Positions 1,392-34,217 of a stretch of DNA of 64,000 nt are shown here, piece after piece; positions within the stretch are counted from its first letter, which is position 1, and the number at the start of each line of letters is the position of its first letter. The notes below the pieces were generated by a model, which had not been told where the DNA came from, did no database searches, and saw only the letters and a program-made list of their open reading frames with translations. This stretch comes from a virus (lineage: Duplodnaviria > Heunggongvirae > Uroviricota > Caudoviricetes): positions 131,339-195,338 of the IMG/VR virus record IMGVR_UViG_3300016667_000484; one strand, written 5' to 3'. The position numbers and the translations under genes are program-made.

Positions 1392-4300
1392 TTACTTATT
1401 TCGTTTCAGCTCTTCAATCTCAGCTTTCAATTCCTTGATTGCTTCGATCAACACACCAACGATGTTACCATAAGCCACCGACTTATATTCATCACCTTCG
1501 TTTTGCATGACGACTTCTGGGAGGATCTGCTCAATCTCCTGAGCGATAACACCTGTGCCTGCCTTACCGTCTTTATCGAAGTAAACACCACGCATCGAAG
1601 AAACTTTGTCAAGGGCGCCATCGATAGTGCGTACGTTACTCTTCAGTCGAGCGTCGGAGTAAGCAGTGACGTTACCAACCGCGGTGAAGTCACCACCCGA
1701 GCTGAACGTTGCAGCAAGAGAGCCAGCGGTTGTGACGTTGATCGTGCTTGTTGCCGACGAATAGAAACCAGTGTCTTGGTTTCTTAGTGCGATAGATGGT
1801 GTTGTGTTCGATCCAGCAGGGAAGTATGATCTTCCACTTGCGACGTGTAGTGCATGTGAATTATCGAGAACGGTGTTTGTGCCGGCAAAAGGCGAACCGC
1901 TGATGTAAACCGTTGATGCGTCAGTGACATGTACGTTAGCTGAAGTCGATGCATATGTCGGTGCGGCGAAAGAAGCAGCCGTGCGTGTTCCGCGCGTTTG
2001 GTTAGTTGTGGACGTCGTATCTGTATGAGTACTTGCTACCATTCTGAGTGCAATACCCGAAGTGGTCCAAGAAGCAGACGAGATGTCTCCATCAAGGGCG
2101 ACCGTATTCGCGAATGTTTTCACGCCGCTGAACGTCTGTGCACCAGTGGTAATAATACCAGACGCAGATGCAGAAGCAGACGGAATTGCTTGACCGGTAC
2201 CAGTCGACGAATTGATCACTGGACCAGATGTTGTACCAGCAGTCCACGTTAGATCGGTGTTCGATACATCAAGTTTGATCGAACCAGCACCATTTGTGAT
2301 GGTGATGTTTTGACCTTGAGTCAAAGTCGCCTTGGTCAATGTGTTACCGGTCGAGTTTCCAATAAGCAGTTGACCATTCGTGTAAGTCGTTTGACCGGTG
2401 CCACCCTTATTCACTGGAATCGTCGATCCACCCCAAACACCAGAAGTGATAGTTCCTACGATAGAAACATTTGAGTCAACTGTGACATCACCGGTTACAT
2501 GAAGCAACGTAGAAGGCGTTCCAGTTCCAATACCAACGTTGCCGTTTGCCGCGATTGTGACTCTGTCAACCATATTGACGTTTGCGACAGTGTTATTCGC
2601 GGTTCTGAACACAAGAGCAGTTGGCATAAGTCCGGTGTTTGCCGTTCCATCAACCTTTGCTTGAACAGAAGCACCAAGAATGAATTCAGTGCCGTCAGAT
2701 CCCACGAATTGGTAATCACCTAGAGAATCACCATTCGTCAGTTTACCGTGAGTACCGAGTGTGTCAGATAGAGAGTGACCAACTTGAATACGACCACCGT
2801 TAACACTTGCGGCGGTATAATGAAGTGCGTTAAACTTAATGCCCGTACCAGCACCACTTGCGATCTGGACTTGCGCGGTTGATCCACCAGTTCCAGTTGA
2901 TCGAGTAGGATACGCGGTGGTAGTACCAAACAACACTCTATTGTTCGTGCTGTCGATGAACATCGTATCGGTGTCGAAGGTGGTGTCACCATTCAGAGTC
3001 GTGTTCGTCAGCGTAGCAGCTGAGCTGAACACCAAGTTACCGGATCCAGTTTCGTCTGAGATAACACCGGCCAATTCCGAAGAAGACGTAGCAGCAAACG
3101 CCGAGAGTTTGTTCGATGTAGTAGCGATTGTTCCAGATGTTGGCAGAGTTACGTCGGTCACACCGGTTGCATTCAACTTAAGAGCGAAGTTGCCAGAAGT
3201 CGTGAAGCTATTCGCAGTCGAGATGTTTCCACCTAGGCTGATAGAAGAACCTGCTGCTTGGCTTGTGACAGTGAGGTTGCCCGTGTTCAGCGTGAGAGTA
3301 CGACCACCGTTGTTGACTCCGGTTCCGCCATAAGTGCTGTTGATGATAGAACCTTGCCACGTACCAGTTCCGATCGTTCCAACCGAGGTCAAGCTAGACG
3401 ATACAACACCTGAACCCAAGCCAGTTGCGCTTAGGACAGTAGTGCCATTGATCTCGTATACTTTACCGGTGAGAAGGTTGAAGTCTTCAGACGATGTCCA
3501 AGCACCAGTTGCGTTAACCCAGTTCAGAGTCTTATCGGTGGTGCCTTTTAGTGTGATACCACCACCATCTGCCGTGACGTTCGTAGGAGACGCGACCGAA
3601 CCAAGCTCGATGTTCTTATCGTCTACCGAGATAGTGGTTGAGTTAACAGTAGTCGTCGTGCCGTTAACTGTGAGATTACCCGAAATAACCACGTTAGAAT
3701 TGATGGTCGCAGACGAACCGTTGACTGTGAGGTTACCAGCGATGACAGTGTTGCTGCTGTTGATCGTAGAAGTCGCGCCGTTAACAGTTAGGCTACCAGA
3801 GATAACTGCATTGTTATTGAACGTTGCAGTTCCGCTTCCTGATGTTGAACCGAAGTTGATATTCGTCGTCGAACCTGTAGCACCGCCCGTGCCGAAGTTG
3901 ATAGTCTTCGTGCTAGTGTTAGCGACTGCCCCGGTTGCGATGTTAAGTGTAGAGCCGGAAGTTCCACTGTATCCAAGCGTCAGGTTAGTTGAGCTTGCGA
4001 ATGCGCTAAATACCGCACTCGAATCCATGCTCGTCGTGAACATTGAAGGTCCTGCAACATCAAGCAATGATTTTGGAGTGCTTGTGCCAATACCAAAGTT
4101 GCCGTTTGCTGCAAGGATAGCTTTAGTTGTGATGGTATTAGTTGACGAAGAACTTCTAAACAGAATCGCCGTTGGCAAATAACCAGTAGTAGGTGTGCCG
4201 TCAACTACTGAAGTGATCTCAGAACCAACAATGAATTCTGAATCAATCGAACCAACCGTTTGATATTCACCGAGTGTATCTCCGTCTAAGACGTTGGAGT

Positions 4301-27785: not shown

Positions 27786-28754
27786 TTAACCTCGTACAGG
27801 AGGAAGAGTTGATTGAGGCGCGATTGATGCAGTTGAGGAACCTGTTCCGGCGTAGTCTTCACGGGTATGAATCTGCGATTCGATCAAGTCGACTTTGAAG
27901 TGCACTAACACAGGTCTTGAACCACCACTGTCCTTGAACAGAGCTTGTCCCTGAGGAGCGTAGTCGACCACGATGTTGTTGATCATGCAAGTCTTGAAAT
28001 AGAAGTAGTACTCTTGATTGAGTCCGACGAAGAATATATCGACCATCGACGGGTAATTCAAGAGTGCGCGGTCATACGACGTGCCAGTCGAAGATGATGT
28101 GCCAAGAGGAGAAGCGTAACTTGGAAGCGCCGCTTTCTTAAACTCATTGATGATGTTCTTAACGAGAGTGCTTTCGTTGGAGTTCTTTGGTGATAGGGTC
28201 CAGTCGAATTGGTGAGTCTTCATCGCCACACCATCAAAGACGATTGAAGCATGAGGGTTCACCGCAGTGCCGCCACCAGCCGAAATGCCTGATTCGACTT
28301 CAGCGCCGCCTGGAAGAGACGTGAGACCAGCTCTTGATAAGTATCGAGCAAAGTTTGCTACGTTCGATGCCATCGTAGTGATGTCAGCTTGACCTGCACT
28401 CTCTACACTCTTTAGCGCAGATCCAGTGATACCAGCCAATTTACCGAGAGCCTGTGTCGCAGTTGCACCATTTGCAACTAATCCACCCGCATCAGCAGTC
28501 AAAGCACCGAGAACGCCGAGTTCCTTTGAACCGAGCTGAACCGAGTACGAGTCACTGATGTTAGTAGGTAATGGAAGAGCGATTGAACTATCGATGATAG
28601 TAGTAACTGGCTCTCCGCCACGATATGTGTAATTCTTGAAGTTGAAGATCATCGCATGAGCGCCTAGATCTTCTGGAAAACGAAAACGAGCGACACCAGT
28701 TTGTGACTGGCGATTCGACTCGATAACAGACTGTGCTGGTTTAATTAAAGTCAT
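27786..28754 (-). CDS. gp48: Baseplate tail-tube cap gp48
   Basis: IALPLPTNISDSYS, AVNPHASIVFDGVAMKTHQFDWTLSPKNSNES..IINEFK. Confidence 0.85.
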   Translation of the reverse strand: MTLIKPAQSVIESNRQSQTGVARFRFPEDLGAHAMIFNFKNYTYRGGEPVTTIIDSSIALPLPTNISDSYSVQLGSKELGVLGALTADAGGLVANGATATQALGKLAGITGSALKSVESAGQADITTMASNVANFARYLSRAGLTSLPGGAEVESGISAGGGTAVNPHASIVFDGVAMKTHQFDWTLSPKNSNESTLVKNIINEFKKAALPSYASPLGTSSSTGTSYDRALLNYPSMVDIFFVGLNQEYYFYFKTCMINNIVVDYAPQGQALFKDSGGSRPVLVHFKVDLIESQIHTREDYAGTGSSTASIAPQSTLPPVRG

Positions 28755-28765
28755 GGACTATGTTC

Positions 28766-28797
28766 CATAAATACTTGACATGTTGAAAGTATTTATA
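28766..28797. promoter_or_regulatory. Pair of oppositely oriented late promoters (CATAAATA on +, TATAAATA on -)
   Basis: 28766-28773 (+) serves gp4; 28790-28797 (-) serves the gp48-baseplate operon. Confidence 0.7.
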
Positions 28798-28806
28798 CGG
28801 AAAGTC

Positions 28807-29274
28807 ATGGCTACGTATTACCAGGGAAAGTTCAGACCTAGGAACCCACAGAAGTACAAAGGTGATCCAACTAACATCATCTACCGTTCTGGCTGGGAGC
28901 TCAAGCTATTCAACTACCTCGATGCACATCCAAACGTGACTAAGTGGTCGAGTGAAGAGTTCTTCATCCCATACATCTCGCCAATCGACGGAAAGTGGCA
29001 TCGTTATTTCCCTGACGTCTACGTTGAACAGATAAATACAGATGGAAAGAAGCAGGTTCTTTTGATCGAAGTAAAACCCGACGCTCAGACTCGTCCACCC
29101 GAGTTGAGTAACAAACTGACCGCAAAGGGTAACATCAGTAGGCGTTACCTAAATGAAGTCAAGATCTGGGGAACTAACGAAGCCAAGTGGAAAGCTGCTC
29201 GAGAATTTTGTCTTGATCGCGGATGGACATTCCAGATCTTGACTGAGAAACAGTTATTTGGAAATAGCAAGTGA
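28807..29274 (+). CDS. gp4: Head completion nuclease gp4
   Basis: YQGKFRPRNPQKYKGDPTNIIYRSGWE...WSSEE..IPY.SP.DGKWHRYFPD...EVKP...NEAKWKAA. Confidence 0.92.
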   Translation: MATYYQGKFRPRNPQKYKGDPTNIIYRSGWELKLFNYLDAHPNVTKWSSEEFFIPYISPIDGKWHRYFPDVYVEQINTDGKKQVLLIEVKPDAQTRPPELSNKLTAKGNISRRYLNEVKIWGTNEAKWKAAREFCLDRGWTFQILTEKQLFGNSK

Positions 29275-29877: not shown

Positions 29878-30468
29878 ATGACTAACGTTTTTGACACCAT
29901 CTTAACAAAAGGAATTCGAGCTGGACAAATTCCGGCTAGAACAGATGCCGCGCGCGAATGGTACAGAAATACTAGTAAAGAGTATAAGCGTATAGATGAA
30001 CGCCAGCTCATGAAGTCGGACGTTGAGAGATTAACTAGTCGTATGCAAGTTGGAAATTGTTATATGTATTACTACGACCCGAAGCATAAGGGCACTCTCC
30101 CGTACTACGACAGGTTCCCATTGGTGTTCCCCTATAAGAAAGTCGCAGGTGGCTTTATGGGCATCAACATGCACTACCTGCCATTGCCTCTTCGAGCCAA
30201 GCTGATGGACTCCCTCTACGACGTAGCAAACAACGAGCAGTTCGACGAGTCGACTCGTCTTAAGCTCAACTATAGAATTCTCGATGGTGCTTCGAAGTTC
30301 AGATGGTTCAAGCCTTGTGTGAAGCATTACCTGACAGAGCAACTTCGTAGTCGATTCCTTTATGTGTATCCATCAGAGTGGGACGTGGCACTCTTTCTTC
30401 CAACAGAACGCTTTCAGGGTGCGACCAAGCAACAGGTTTGGGCCGACTCGAAGAAACTCATCGTATAA
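29878..30468 (+). CDS. gp2: DNA end protector gp2
   Basis: YYYDPKHKGTLPYYDRFPLV...GINMHYLP...KPCVKHYL...W..ALFLPTERF. Confidence 0.92.
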   Translation: MTNVFDTILTKGIRAGQIPARTDAAREWYRNTSKEYKRIDERQLMKSDVERLTSRMQVGNCYMYYYDPKHKGTLPYYDRFPLVFPYKKVAGGFMGINMHYLPLPLRAKLMDSLYDVANNEQFDESTRLKLNYRILDGASKFRWFKPCVKHYLTEQLRSRFLYVYPSEWDVALFLPTERFQGATKQQVWADSKKLIV

Positions 30469-30477
30469 GGACCGACC

Positions 30478-31230
30478 ATGGTTTTTAACATCAACGAATT
30501 CAAGTCACAGATTGCTTCGCGCGGCCTAGCGAAAAACAACCTGTTCATCACTCGAATCACATTGCCCGCGACTTTGTCTAGCCTAGAACAAAACATCCCA
30601 ACTCGCGACTTGTCTTTCCTATGCAAGTCAGTGAGTCTGCCATCTTTTGAACTTAACTACGTCGACGTCAGACCACAGGGATTCGGTAAACCAGAGAAGC
30701 GTCCACTTGAGTTTCATGCTGGTGATTTGACTGGACTGTTCATGGTTGATAGCAACTTCGCAGTCATGAAGTTCTTCCACAGATGGATTCAATCGATCAC
30801 AAACATCGGCGACTATAACGGTAGCCACAGTGTCGACACCGACGGTAAAGTACCATACGAGTTTGCGTACAAAGAAGACTACGTTGCGACGATGGAAGTC
30901 TTAGTCTATTCAGGAAACGACGCTAACAAAGTTTATCAATATAAGTTTGGTAACGTATATCCATTGAACATCGGAAACATCGATGTTGCGTGGGAAAACC
31001 AAGCCGAGATTATGACTGTTGGAGTTAACTTCGCGTACGACAAAATTGCTGTTGATGGCTTTGAACTCGGAAGCATCACGAGTGATATGGAAAACGCAAA
31101 TGGTCTATTGACCTATGCTGCTTCTTATTATGGTTTCATTCAAGCAATCAACCAAGTTTCAACGCCAACGTCAGTGCAAGATATGATCAACCAAGCAACG
31201 ACTGTGACTACAATCTACAATGCACTTTAA
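30478..31230 (+). CDS. Tail tube initiator gp54-like (gp19 fold)
   Basis: GLAKNNLF...LSFLCKSVSLP...FFHRWIQSI...YKEDY...VYPLNIGNIDVAWE...VNFAY. Confidence 0.8.
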   Translation: MVFNINEFKSQIASRGLAKNNLFITRITLPATLSSLEQNIPTRDLSFLCKSVSLPSFELNYVDVRPQGFGKPEKRPLEFHAGDLTGLFMVDSNFAVMKFFHRWIQSITNIGDYNGSHSVDTDGKVPYEFAYKEDYVATMEVLVYSGNDANKVYQYKFGNVYPLNIGNIDVAWENQAEIMTVGVNFAYDKIAVDGFELGSITSDMENANGLLTYAASYYGFIQAINQVSTPTSVQDMINQATTVTTIYNAL

Positions 31231-31241
31231 TGGAGTAAATC

Positions 31242-31943
31242 ATGGCATTACCTAGAATTAGCCTGCCCCTATATGAGATCACTATCCCATCTACAGATAA
31301 AAAGGTTACATATCGCCCATTCACTGTTAAGGAAGAAAAGATTCTTCTATTAGCAAAAGAATCTAAAGACATCGATCAGATCATTCTTGCTATAACGCAG
31401 ATAATCAACAACTGCGTTAAAGACGTTGATGTATCAAAATTGTCAACGTTTGATCTAGAATATCTCATGTTCAATATTCGTGCAAGATCTGTTAATGACA
31501 TAATCAAATTCAAAGTTTCTGATCCAGATACTAATGAAGATGTTGAGCTGGAATTGAACATCAACTCAGTGACTATGGTCAAAAATGATCAACACAATAA
31601 AATCATCAAGCTGAATGATGACTATAATTTGGTGATGCGTTATCCAACGGTAAATGAGCTTAAAGTCTTGTCAGACACTGACTCAAATGATACGTCTAAG
31701 ATCTTCGATATGATGATTGGATGTATTGACTTCATCGCTTCAGGAGATTCCATAACAAAGATGTCGGAATGCACACCGAAAGAAGTGGTAGATTTTGTTG
31801 AAGGTTTGCCAACTTCTGCCATCAAAGACATCCAAACGTTCTTTCAGACTATGCCAGTGATGAGGGTCGAATGTCCTTATGTTAACCGCAAAGGTGAACA
31901 CAAATCGTTCGTTATTCAGGGTATCGAAAGTTTTTTTATCTAA
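31242..31943 (+). CDS. gp26: Baseplate hub assembly protein gp26
   Basis: MALPRI..P.YEITIPSTDKKVTYRPFTVKEEKILLLA...FDLEYLMFNIRARSV...MRYPT...FFQTMP...GIESFF. Confidence 0.9.
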   Translation: MALPRISLPLYEITIPSTDKKVTYRPFTVKEEKILLLAKESKDIDQIILAITQIINNCVKDVDVSKLSTFDLEYLMFNIRARSVNDIIKFKVSDPDTNEDVELELNINSVTMVKNDQHNKIIKLNDDYNLVMRYPTVNELKVLSDTDSNDTSKIFDMMIGCIDFIASGDSITKMSECTPKEVVDFVEGLPTSAIKDIQTFFQTMPVMRVECPYVNRKGEHKSFVIQGIESFFI

Positions 31944-31945
31944 GC

Positions 31946-32110
31946 ATGAGTCATCGAACATTGCTAGAGTACTATAAAGCAATGTTCGCTTTGGCTCAAC
32001 ACCATAAATACTCCATAGATACTCTCGAAAGAATGATGCCATTTGAATTGGATATTTACTTTGATATGCTTGTTGATTTCATTGAAGAGAGCAGACAGAA
32101 AAATAGGTAA
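31946..32110 (+). CDS. gp51: gp51-like hub assembly catalyst (54 aa; possibly the frameshifted C-terminus of gp26)
   Basis: Hand translation MSHRTLLEYYKAMFALAQHHKYSIDTLERMMPFELDIYFDMLVDFIEESRQKNR; below the ORF-track cutoff. Confidence 0.85.
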   Translation: MSHRTLLEYYKAMFALAQHHKYSIDTLERMMPFELDIYFDMLVDFIEESRQKNR

Positions 32111-32117
32111 GTAATCC

Positions 32118-34217
32118 ATGGCAGTTGATCAAGACAAAGAAGATACAGATCGTGTGAAGCGTGAAAAAGAACACTTGCTGTCTAGTCAAGTGAGTCAAAA
32201 ACGTCTTGGCGAGATCAAGGATATTCTTAGCACTATGAAGAAGTCGACTGATGATTACTTTAGTAGTCTAAAAGAGTCGGCTAAAATACGTGCTGATGCA
32301 GCCGCCGACGAAGCGAGAAATACACAATTTGAGTCACTTCGCCGCGAAGCAAAGAACACTTCTGAAGGTAGATCAAGCGTAGAAGGAACTATAGATTCTA
32401 TTTCTAAGGCTAGCCCAAAATTAGGAGGCCTAGGAATTGGCCTCGGCGCGCTTGGATTAGGCATTGGTGGATTCTTTATGGGTCTATCTGGTGCTGAAGC
32501 GATTATGGATCACTTTGGGACAGGCGAAAACCTAAAGAAGATGATCATAAATCTAGGTGATGGTCTTTCATCTCTAGATGCACAGAGTCTTGCGGCGCTT
32601 GGCACATTGGTTGCTGGCTCAGCGCTATTCGCGGCGAACACATCGTTTGGTAAGCAGATCCGTGTTCCGACTGGAATGTTTGCAGTCGGTGCCGGCATCG
32701 GTGGATTCTTTGCCGGATTGGCTCTAGCGGATAGCGCGATGTCGTGGGTCTCGACTGACACCGGTGCTTTAAAGAATCAGATGATCAATCTTGCAGATGG
32801 ATTAGCTGCGTTTTCTGGCCGCGACTTAACCGCACTCGGTGGACTTCTAACTGGCTCAGCGCTGTTTGCCACAAACACTTCTTTGGGTACGCAGTTTAAA
32901 GCTGCTACCGGCATGACTCTATTGGGCGCGGGCATCGGTGGATTCTTTGCCGGATTGACTGGAGTTACAGATCTGGCAGCGTTTTTAGGCGCTGATGGTG
33001 AAGGCATCAAAAACATGATGGTCAATATAGCTGAAGGCTTAAATGCCTTCAGTGGCCAAAGTTTAGGCGCGCTAGGTGCACTTCTTGGCACCGGCGCTCT
33101 CTTTGGTTTAGCCGGGCCAGTCGTAAATGGCATGGCTGCAGTCGGAATGACTATGATAGGTGTAGGACTCGCGGGATTTCTTTCAGCGTTCTCTGGTATC
33201 GGTGACATTGCATCATATCTAGGAGCCGATGGTTCTGGTGCTAAGGTGATGATGATTAACCTAGCGGAAGGCCTTAAGTCATTCATTGGGGTTGATTCTA
33301 AGGCAATAACCGATGCAGCTGTTGGAATGGCAGTTCTAAGCCCTGCTCTATTGGCTTTCTTTGGCTCACAAGGTATATCATCTGTTTTAGATACCATCAC
33401 AAGTTTCATCACTTGGGCTACAGGCAGCGATGATCCAATCACTACGGTTGTAGCTCAACTTCGTAAGTTTGAATCGATTGATACGTCCAAACTGGAAAAC
33501 ACAAAAGGTATTGGTATTGGAAGCATCCTGACTGATATAGCATCAGGATTAAGTGCCTTCTCTGAAGCACAATTTGATGCATCAGTCCTAGGTGTGTTGA
33601 CGAATATTGCAAACTGGTTCAGCGGCAATGATACACCATTTGATGCTATCGCCAAACTCGGTGAAAAGGCTGATCTTCTGACCTCTGCTGCTTCTGCGAT
33701 AGAACGTATAGCAGAAGCAATGAAAAAGTTTGCAGAGATACCTTCTTCTGCAAACTTTGACTTTGATCAAATGGCTAAACAACTTGCTTCAGCAGTGCCT
33801 CTGTTTGATGCGGTGCTTCACGGTGGACCATTGAATGATTCGATGTTTGGTTTCGATACAGTGATAGAAAAGGGTCTGCTTGATCCAGACTTCAATCTGG
33901 ACGCCGGCATTGACGCGATCAATAAAGTGAAACGCGCTCTCAGTGAAGTATACGACATTGAAATTTCACCTAGTGTTAACATCGCTCCTGCAGCGGAAGT
34001 TACCTTGCCAACAACAAAGGCTGTTAACACTATATCTACTAATGCAGTAGATATGGCAATATCATCAAGAGGACCTGCTGGAGCACCTATAAACTATGCG
34101 CCGATGTCAGTGAATAACAACAGTGGCGGTAATGTGAATTCTTCGACAACTAACATCGTCGTGAACCCATCTACTGGTTTGGACACTGCGCCTTGGTTAT
34201 TGGGCTCTGCGATGTAA
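32118..34217 (+). CDS. Tape-measure-like protein (gp29 position) with hydrophobic ~79-aa repeats
   Basis: 699 aa, Ala/Gly-rich helical repeats, directly after gp26/gp51; ends in an N/S/T-rich tail. Confidence 0.6.
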   Translation: MAVDQDKEDTDRVKREKEHLLSSQVSQKRLGEIKDILSTMKKSTDDYFSSLKESAKIRADAAADEARNTQFESLRREAKNTSEGRSSVEGTIDSISKASPKLGGLGIGLGALGLGIGGFFMGLSGAEAIMDHFGTGENLKKMIINLGDGLSSLDAQSLAALGTLVAGSALFAANTSFGKQIRVPTGMFAVGAGIGGFFAGLALADSAMSWVSTDTGALKNQMINLADGLAAFSGRDLTALGGLLTGSALFATNTSLGTQFKAATGMTLLGAGIGGFFAGLTGVTDLAAFLGADGEGIKNMMVNIAEGLNAFSGQSLGALGALLGTGALFGLAGPVVNGMAAVGMTMIGVGLAGFLSAFSGIGDIASYLGADGSGAKVMMINLAEGLKSFIGVDSKAITDAAVGMAVLSPALLAFFGSQGISSVLDTITSFITWATGSDDPITTVVAQLRKFESIDTSKLENTKGIGIGSILTDIASGLSAFSEAQFDASVLGVLTNIANWFSGNDTPFDAIAKLGEKADLLTSAASAIERIAEAMKKFAEIPSSANFDFDQMAKQLASAVPLFDAVLHGGPLNDSMFGFDTVIEKGLLDPDFNLDAGIDAINKVKRALSEVYDIEISPSVNIAPAAEVTLPTTKAVNTISTNAVDMAISSRGPAGAPINYAPMSVNNNSGGNVNSSTTNIVVNPSTGLDTAPWLLGSAM

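Follow-up and report, generated by a model that had tools for sequence, protein, structure and literature searches.

A predicted -1 frameshift signal between the gp26-like and gp51-like reading frames of a T4-like phage

Background

The gp26-like gene of a T4-like phage known from IMG/VR record IMGVR_UViG_3300016667_000484 ends in a run of T residues, and just past its stop codon lies a small gp51-like open reading frame (ORF) in the -1 frame. The question raised by this locus is whether the two frames are two genes or one gene that is read in two ways. The virus record comprises 195,338 bp and was judged complete; the window, i.e. the whole stretch of DNA that was analysed, has 64,000 nucleotides and corresponds to positions 131,339 to 195,338 of the record. 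All coordinates below refer to the window.

Lambda gpG/gpGT and the -1 frameshift that the tail assembly chaperones of long-tailed phages have in common are reported to have been described by Levin in 1993 and by Xu, Hendrix and Duda in 2004, and are reviewed in PMC5009743. T4 has long been quoted as the sole long-tailed phage without a chaperone frameshift of the G/GT type; according to Atkins et al. 2016 (PMC5009743) G-T frameshifting is a conserved feature of long-tailed phages "except T4". The term "hub assembly chaperones" was used by Leiman et al. 2010 (PMC3004832), in whose description T4 gp51 is required yet absent from the particle. The gap was closed by Vladimirov, Gautam and Davidson in 2022 (Virology 566:9-15, PMID 34826709), who, according to the content of their paper given in PMC10885494 and PMC12846349, recognised in these genes the tail assembly chaperones that T4-like phages use. 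In the account of that work given with PRFect, some T4-like phages have a short gene and a longer fused gene instead of frameshifting, and a 2025 paper refers to the same work for -1 frameshift signals of the poly-T type in the genes that encode the short form in T4-like phages. The first-pass annotation of the window, made from the letters alone, implied that such a signal would be new for T4-like phages; this part of it fails, as the 2022 identification, in the form in which it is relayed by the later papers, preceded it. On these accounts the class is already known and the window holds a new, unannotated single-gene member of it.

Results

The gp26-like gene and its neighbours

The gp26-like gene occupies positions 31242-31943 of the plus strand and encodes in the zero frame a protein of 233 aa, referred to as the short form (TAC-N). 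It matches the Pfam family PF12322 (T4_baseplate) with an E value of 1.5e-55 and 188.7 bits against a cut-off of 24.5, residues 10-232 being aligned with profile positions 3-218 of 219, and it also matches phrog_150 (E 7.9e-61). The complete 195,338-bp genome contains no second PF12322 match, so a long form could come only from recoding.

For the gene order claimed in the first-pass annotation, namely tube-fold gene, gp26, gp51 and tape-measure-like gene, the two ends are backed by different kinds of evidence. Directly 5' of the gp26-like gene a tail-tube-family gene of 250 aa was found (30478-31230, plus strand); it was assigned through phrog_45 "tail tube" (E 1.7e-36) and scored 26.6 bits against Pfam Phage_TTP_2, slightly below the 27-bit cut-off. 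The gene directly 3' of the gp51-like frame (32118-34217, plus strand) encodes a protein of 699 aa which is termed tape-measure-like on its position, size and Gly/Ala/Leu-rich hydrophobic stretches. This protein had no Pfam or PHROG match and is not assignable to any tape-measure family; BLASTP gave T4 gp29 as a weak match (E 0.059), which is the sole sequence support. Further upstream lie genes for a gp48-like tube cap (27786-28754, minus strand), a gp4-like head closure protein (28780-29274, plus strand) and a gp2-like DNA end protector (29878-30468), and gp32 follows 3' of the 699-aa gene on the minus strand. The gp4-like protein was recognised by phrog_218 (E 1.3e-58) and also matched the Pfam TnsA-like endonuclease N-terminal domain (E 3e-22).

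A comparable order was seen in phage phiM12, in which a gene annotated with "similarity to tape measure" lies near the gp51-like ORF, downstream of it, with one small ORF between. This extra hypothetical ORF (2690-3109 of the examined phiM12 locus) has a counterpart in phage Melnitz (1710-2039 of the examined locus), which likewise follows the gp51-like tail and precedes the large tape-measure-like gene. The extra ORFs encode 109-139 aa and the window is without such an ORF.

Fold of the 233-aa protein

An AlphaFold2 model of the 233-aa protein was built from 45 sequences (pLDDT 84, pTM 0.77). In an exhaustive VIA-align search with the model, the three top matches all fell on residues 1-90: 3fgx with a Z score of 7.6, 2ob9, which is the tail assembly chaperone of HK97, with 7.1 (83 residues, rmsd 3.9), and YqbN 3klu with 6.4; the next match had a Z score of 4.5. 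These three structures form one functional family, as each either is a tail assembly chaperone or closely resembles one, and their scores of 6.4-7.6 are middling in size and clear of the rest. A Foldseek search of the model against the PDB returned nothing better than E 0.1, and a sequence search of the PDB with gp26 gave a chance-level match only. The model thus backs, at middling Z scores, a fold of the N-terminal domain like that of the HK97 and YqbN chaperones, and these matches also back the analogy with lambda G/GT drawn in the first-pass annotation. We infer that the gp26-like gene is the phage's single tail (tape-measure) assembly chaperone gene.

The slippery heptamer and the -1 frame

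The 3' end of the gp26-like gene reads GAA AGT TTT TTT ATC TAA. The heptamer T TTT TTT at 31931-31937 of the plus strand is placed in the X XXY YYZ phase, the zero-frame codons being (AG)T TTT TTT, and one sense codon separates it from the TAA stop of the short form at 31941-31943. The -1 frame reads TTT TTT TAT CTA AGC ATG and stays open up to the stop at 32108-32110. The extension in this frame (31937-32110, plus strand) has 57 codons plus the stop and constitutes a gp51-like C-terminal tail; its 54-codon part from 31946 to 32110, which may be taken for an ORF of its own, matches PHROG 634 "baseplate hub assembly catalyst" with an E value of 2.9e-20. Residues 1-232 followed by the -1 extension give a predicted long form (TAC-NC) of 289 aa with the junction peptide ..SFFYLSMSHR. 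The phased heptamer one sense codon before the stop, the open -1 frame leading into a 54-aa gp51-like ORF, a fusion of about 290 aa and the same junction peptide had all been described or predicted in the first-pass annotation and agree with the sequence in every detail.

Conservation of the signal in related loci

Searching the phage collection with the nucleotide sequence of the locus gave no match, and relatives were found at the protein level only. The survey covered 80 IMG/VR loci that encode a gp26 with 45-55 % identity to the one in the window, together with phiM12 and the window itself, 82 loci in all. Removal of duplicates left 56 unique loci with a median pairwise identity of 50 % and a minimum of 30 %. 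These loci are kin and the counts given below are not counts of independent events.

The gp51-like frame was -1 relative to gp26 and the in-phase heptamer was kept in 82 of 82 loci. In the unique set the heptamer was TTTTTTT in 55 loci and TTTTTTC in one, always in phase, and it ended 3 nt before the stop in 54 of the 56. The Z position, free to be T or C, is therefore the sole heptamer position that varies, as the X XXY YYZ rule predicts. The synonymous sites around it are frozen: the slip-site Phe codons were TTT in 56/56 loci (first) and 55/56 (second), whereas the control, formed by six further columns in which 90 % or more of the loci have Phe, showed TTT:TTC ratios of 29:27, 46:9, 41:12, 39:17, 18:38 and 36:16. 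All the remaining conserved degenerate columns were mixed too. The codon preceding the Phe pair always ended in T (ACT in 35 loci, AGT in 16, TCT in 4 and AAT in one), while elsewhere T accounts for about a third of the third positions of ACN and TCN codons. Conservation of the -1 frame sets in at the heptamer itself, and from there on the 56 loci share the motif FF[YS][LVI]x[LM][SC]H..L..YY...F.LAQHHK, kept as FFYLSMSH..YYK..F.LAQHHK at the peptide level.

The signal was also present in ten cultured phages of several families, in which an in-phase T TTT TTY lies 0-6 nt before the stop and is followed by an open -1 tail; with the surveyed loci included the distance is 0-9 nt. These are syn9, P-SSM2, B23 and Melnitz (Kyanoviridae); pf16 (Chakrabartyvirus) and Milchi; Stenotrophomonas phage Ps15 (Menderavirus); Aeromonas phage Asswx_1 (Ceceduovirus); a KVP40-like vibriophage (Schizotequatrovirus); and phiM12 (Emdodecavirus). 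Among them, too, the heptamer differs at its seventh base alone, which is T or C. A joined coding sequence was annotated in none of the ten GenBank records, and several of them give a truncated "gp51" ORF or none. In the record of Asswx_1 (MH791398; 1881-2069 of the examined locus), for instance, a gp51-like -1 frame of 62 codons after T TTT TTC is unannotated. The cyanophage records ACG-2014b/d/e, S-CAM1, P-RSM1 and S-MbCM6 have "none" listed under the gp51 match.

A gp26/gp51 phase that varies among relatives and a free use of TTC at the two Phe codons had been named in the first-pass annotation as observations that would speak against a frameshift. The phase turned out to be invariant, in the 82 loci as well as in the ten cultured phages, and TTC never occurred at the first Phe codon, being confined to the free Z position.

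T4 gp26 and gp51 and the two-gene lineages

The window genes belong to the same family as T4 gp26 and gp51 (PF12322; phrog_150 and phrog_634). T4 gp51 (249 aa) consists of a full T4_baseplate domain (1-201) and a tail, PHROG 634 covering residues 147-246. The tail of the window protein shows homology to the last ~50 residues of T4 gp51, with which it has the motif YY[KQ]..F.L..H[KN]YS....MxP.E in common. The small ORF of phiM12, moreover, matches the last part of PHROG 150, a part that is spanned by T4 gp51 and not by T4 gp26. Judged by these sequence matches, the predicted 289-aa fusion has its in-frame counterpart in T4 gp51, and the short form corresponds to T4 gp26 (208 aa). Among longer database proteins no in-frame fused relative of the 54-aa tail was found with a word index that is insensitive to short queries.

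In T4 and its close kin the short and the long protein come from two divergently transcribed genes with no T-run, whereas the window phage has one gene followed by a -1 tail. The two-gene arrangement was used as a control. Since a scan of IMG/VR for relatives of T4 gp26 gave near-identical T4 kin only, the controls were taken from GenBank records and comprised seven lineages: T4, Moon, a Klebsiella phage, AnYang, Acinetobacter phage Berthold, RB49 and Aeromonas phage AS4. In the last 60 nt of gp26 of these seven lineages there was no T-run of at least 4 and no in-phase heptamer. Most of them keep the motif "..G[LF]KEFF.." in the gp26 tail, coded with TTC TTT. The T-run thus accompanies a tail that lies in the -1 frame and is missing from lineages in which the long form has a gene of its own.

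Two of the control records carry chaperone labels of their own. In the record of Acinetobacter phage Berthold (NC_049490; 478-1945 of the examined locus) gp26 and gp51 are already labelled "tape measure protein assembly chaperone". In that of Citrobacter phage Moon (KM236240; 1-498 of the examined locus) the gp27-like and gp28-like genes are annotated as "tape measure chaperone" with a joined "GT-like fusion protein"; this annotation puts a frameshift of the G/GT type at gp27/28 and conflicts with the gp26/gp51 assignment supported here.

Candidate stimulators on both sides of the heptamer

Downstream, an RNA hairpin at 31947-31998 (plus strand), which begins 9 nt past the heptamer and has an outer stem of 7 bp and an inner stem of 11 bp, is a candidate stimulator. 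Its folding in silico gave a minimum free energy of -23.6 kcal/mol (z -5.8), and 0 of 200 shuffled sequences were as stable. In the outer stem 93.5 % of cells were paired across 48 relatives, a level reached by 0 of 500 shuffles, and slid controls gave at most 39 %. Eleven cells showed a double change, e.g. A-U to U-A, in which Ser AGY is replaced by Cys TGY together with Ala GCT by GCA. Both arms of the stem encode conserved residues, so that constraint on the protein accounts for some of the conserved pairing and the covariation support is moderate. RNAalifold retained the outer stem only, with a weak consensus of -1.21 kcal/mol, and since the inner stems differ among relatives no conserved full structure is claimed. 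No Rfam family matched the hairpin. With 9 nt, the spacer between heptamer and hairpin is at the upper end of the known range.

Upstream, the element AGGG at 31918-31921 (plus strand), resembling a Shine-Dalgarno (SD) sequence, lies 9 nt before the heptamer, close to the distance of about 10 nt given for it in the first-pass annotation, and is a candidate upstream stimulator which is weak in the window. Here the two codons read CAG GGT, weaker than the GGAGGG formed in many related loci, where the matching Glu-Gly codons read G GAG GGN about 9 nt before the heptamer. At this Glu codon GAG and GAA were used in a ratio of 29:13 compared with 352:801 over the rest of the gene, which amounts to an odds ratio of 5 (p 6e-7, ignoring phylogeny); besides the 13 loci with GAA, 11 loci have CAR at this site.

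Alternative origins of the gp51-like tail

The identical 289-aa protein would be made if it were RNA polymerase and not the ribosome that slipped, i.e. if the polymerase stuttered on the T7 run and left an extra U in some of the mRNAs. A T7 run can support slippage of RNA polymerase, and the site is a pure homopolymer (T7 in the window, T6-T8 in relatives) which is never mixed as A AAA AAG or G GGA AAG are. Slippage of this kind would not need a defined phase, however, and the run always keeps the X XXY YYZ phase exactly, variation being limited to Z. In many lineages, furthermore, it is reduced to T6 followed by C, which is short for slippage of bacterial RNA polymerase. The covarying downstream hairpin and the enrichment of the SD-like element at dnaX-like spacing both fit a ribosomal signal, and in PRFect's reading of the 2022 paper, as far as it conveys that paper, the "other mechanism" of making a long form is two separate genes and not slippage. 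Transcriptional slippage is therefore considered an improbable source of the long form, if still the best placed of the alternatives.

Slightly less probable again is that no recoding takes place and that a 54-aa protein is made from the ATG at 31946-31948 (plus strand), annotated as the start of gp51, by termination and reinitiation, the -1 phase then merely reflecting the tight packing of stop and start. This ATG lies 2 nt past the TAA and 704 nt (3n+2) after the ATG of gp26, which places it in the -1 frame, and 40 of the 56 relatives have ATG, GTG or TTG within one codon of that position, often in a TAATG overlap. In addition, two Ackermannviridae-like Vibrio phages, YC (1138-2066) and D504 (1174-2090), have a gp26-like gene followed by a -1 gp51-like tail with a TAATG overlap, and in these two an X XXY YYZ heptamer is absent, a "T TTC" tetramer being all that was found. 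Their tail may be made separately, or via a non-canonical shift, and there may thus be lineages in which a free-standing tail is functional.

The codon itself, however, behaves like an internal one. In the 56 unique loci the codon aligned with ATG 31946 was TTG in 24, CTG in 20, CTA in 5, ATG in 4, GTC in 2 and ACG in one; it encodes Leu in 49 of 56, the pattern of an internal hydrophobic residue, and the would-be start drifts among TTG, CTG and CTA accordingly. In 16 of the 56 no ATG, GTG or TTG occurs until 5-40 codons into the conserved tail. No purine-rich SD sequence precedes ATG 31946, and the conservation of the -1 frame begins 5' of it, at the heptamer. Independent initiation also leaves unexplained both the frozen T-run and its loss in the two-gene lineages, and the long form of T4 is a fused protein. 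Taken together, these findings indicate that ATG 31946 most likely encodes an internal Met residue in the long form. The absence of an SD sequence had been noticed correctly in the first-pass annotation, in which the conservation of this ATG was proposed as a check; the outcome of that check, like those on phase and on TTC, favours the frameshift interpretation. Its further guess, that small "gp51" annotations in related phages are frameshift tails, is in line with the records of syn9 (TTG; 1971-2114) and Melnitz (ATG; 1549-1692), in which gp51 is annotated from a start 18 and 19 codons, respectively, inside the conserved -1 motif. Judging from this position, the deposited gp51 proteins of syn9 and Melnitz are probably truncated frameshift tails.

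An accidental T-run beside an unrelated small ORF, for which the low G+C content, at which T-runs are commoner, is the sole argument, was rejected with near certainty, since phase and heptamer are kept in 82 of 82 loci, the Phe codons stand out against their internal synonymous-site control and the small ORF matches phrog_634 with an E value of 2.9e-20.

Discussion

The reading that best accommodates the data is that programmed ribosomal -1 frameshifting yields two forms of one chaperone, of 233 and 289 aa; on the sequence evidence its probability is put at roughly 0.7. Most ribosomes would stop at the TAA at 31941 and release the 233-aa short form. A minority would slip back by one base on U UUU UUU (31931-31937), both tRNA-Phe molecules re-pairing on UUU, and would continue in the -1 frame through "...SFF-YLSMSHR..." to give the 289-aa long form, the tail of which is the so-called gp51. 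The two forms may be made at a fixed ratio, as was proposed in the first-pass annotation. The slip would probably be aided by the hairpin 9 nt downstream and by the weak SD-like AGGG 9 nt upstream, in a layout like that of dnaX. The phased heptamer, its frozen synonymous sites and the single copy of the gene belong to the sequence; that ribosomes slip on it, and at an efficiency which leaves the long form in the minority, we infer.

By analogy, the pair in the window may be taken to correspond to lambda G/GT and to T4 genes 26 (short) and 51 (long). As in the case of lambda gpG and gpGT, a short and a long form would come from one gene by a -1 shift near its 3' end, and the gene sits between a tube-family gene and a tape-measure-like gene. 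The likeness is one of arrangement: lambda gpG has no detectable sequence similarity to the gp26-like protein of the window, whose short form is about 90 residues longer than gpG and carries in addition an alpha/beta domain at its C-terminus (model residues ~85-230). The heptamers differ as well, that of lambda being G GGA AAG and that of the window U UUU UUU. The site is closer in its layout to that of E. coli dnaX, which likewise combines an SD-like element, an in-phase homopolymeric heptamer and a stable downstream hairpin; in the window the SD-like element stands ~9 nt upstream, and the elements are predicted. The dnaX heptamer is A AAA AAG and not U-rich, its spacer to the hairpin is 6 nt compared with 9 nt in the window, and the dnaX shift truncates the protein, whereas the shift in the window would extend it.

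No new biological category is opened by this locus. Its practical value lies in a better annotation of hundreds of T4-like genomes, in which one gene would be assigned two products. The segment 31915-32000 makes a well-defined cassette for U UUU UUU shifting, on which ribosomal and transcriptional slippage can be set against each other.

A more far-reaching interpretation is conceivable and is put forward tentatively, as it has appreciably less than an even chance of being right. If the published account of the long form is one of two genes or of transcriptional slippage, the single-gene signal of T4-like phages would be a true three-part ribosomal -1 site of the dnaX type, the frameshift would be ancestral and the two-gene state of T4 derived. 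The groups with a single gene would then be Kyanoviridae, Schizotequatrovirus, Ceceduovirus, Emdodecavirus, Chakrabartyvirus and Menderavirus, and the site, if this holds true, would be a phase-locked U UUU UUY in which only Z is free, with SD-like enrichment ahead of it and a covarying hairpin behind it, its loss coinciding exactly with the presence of a separate gene 51.
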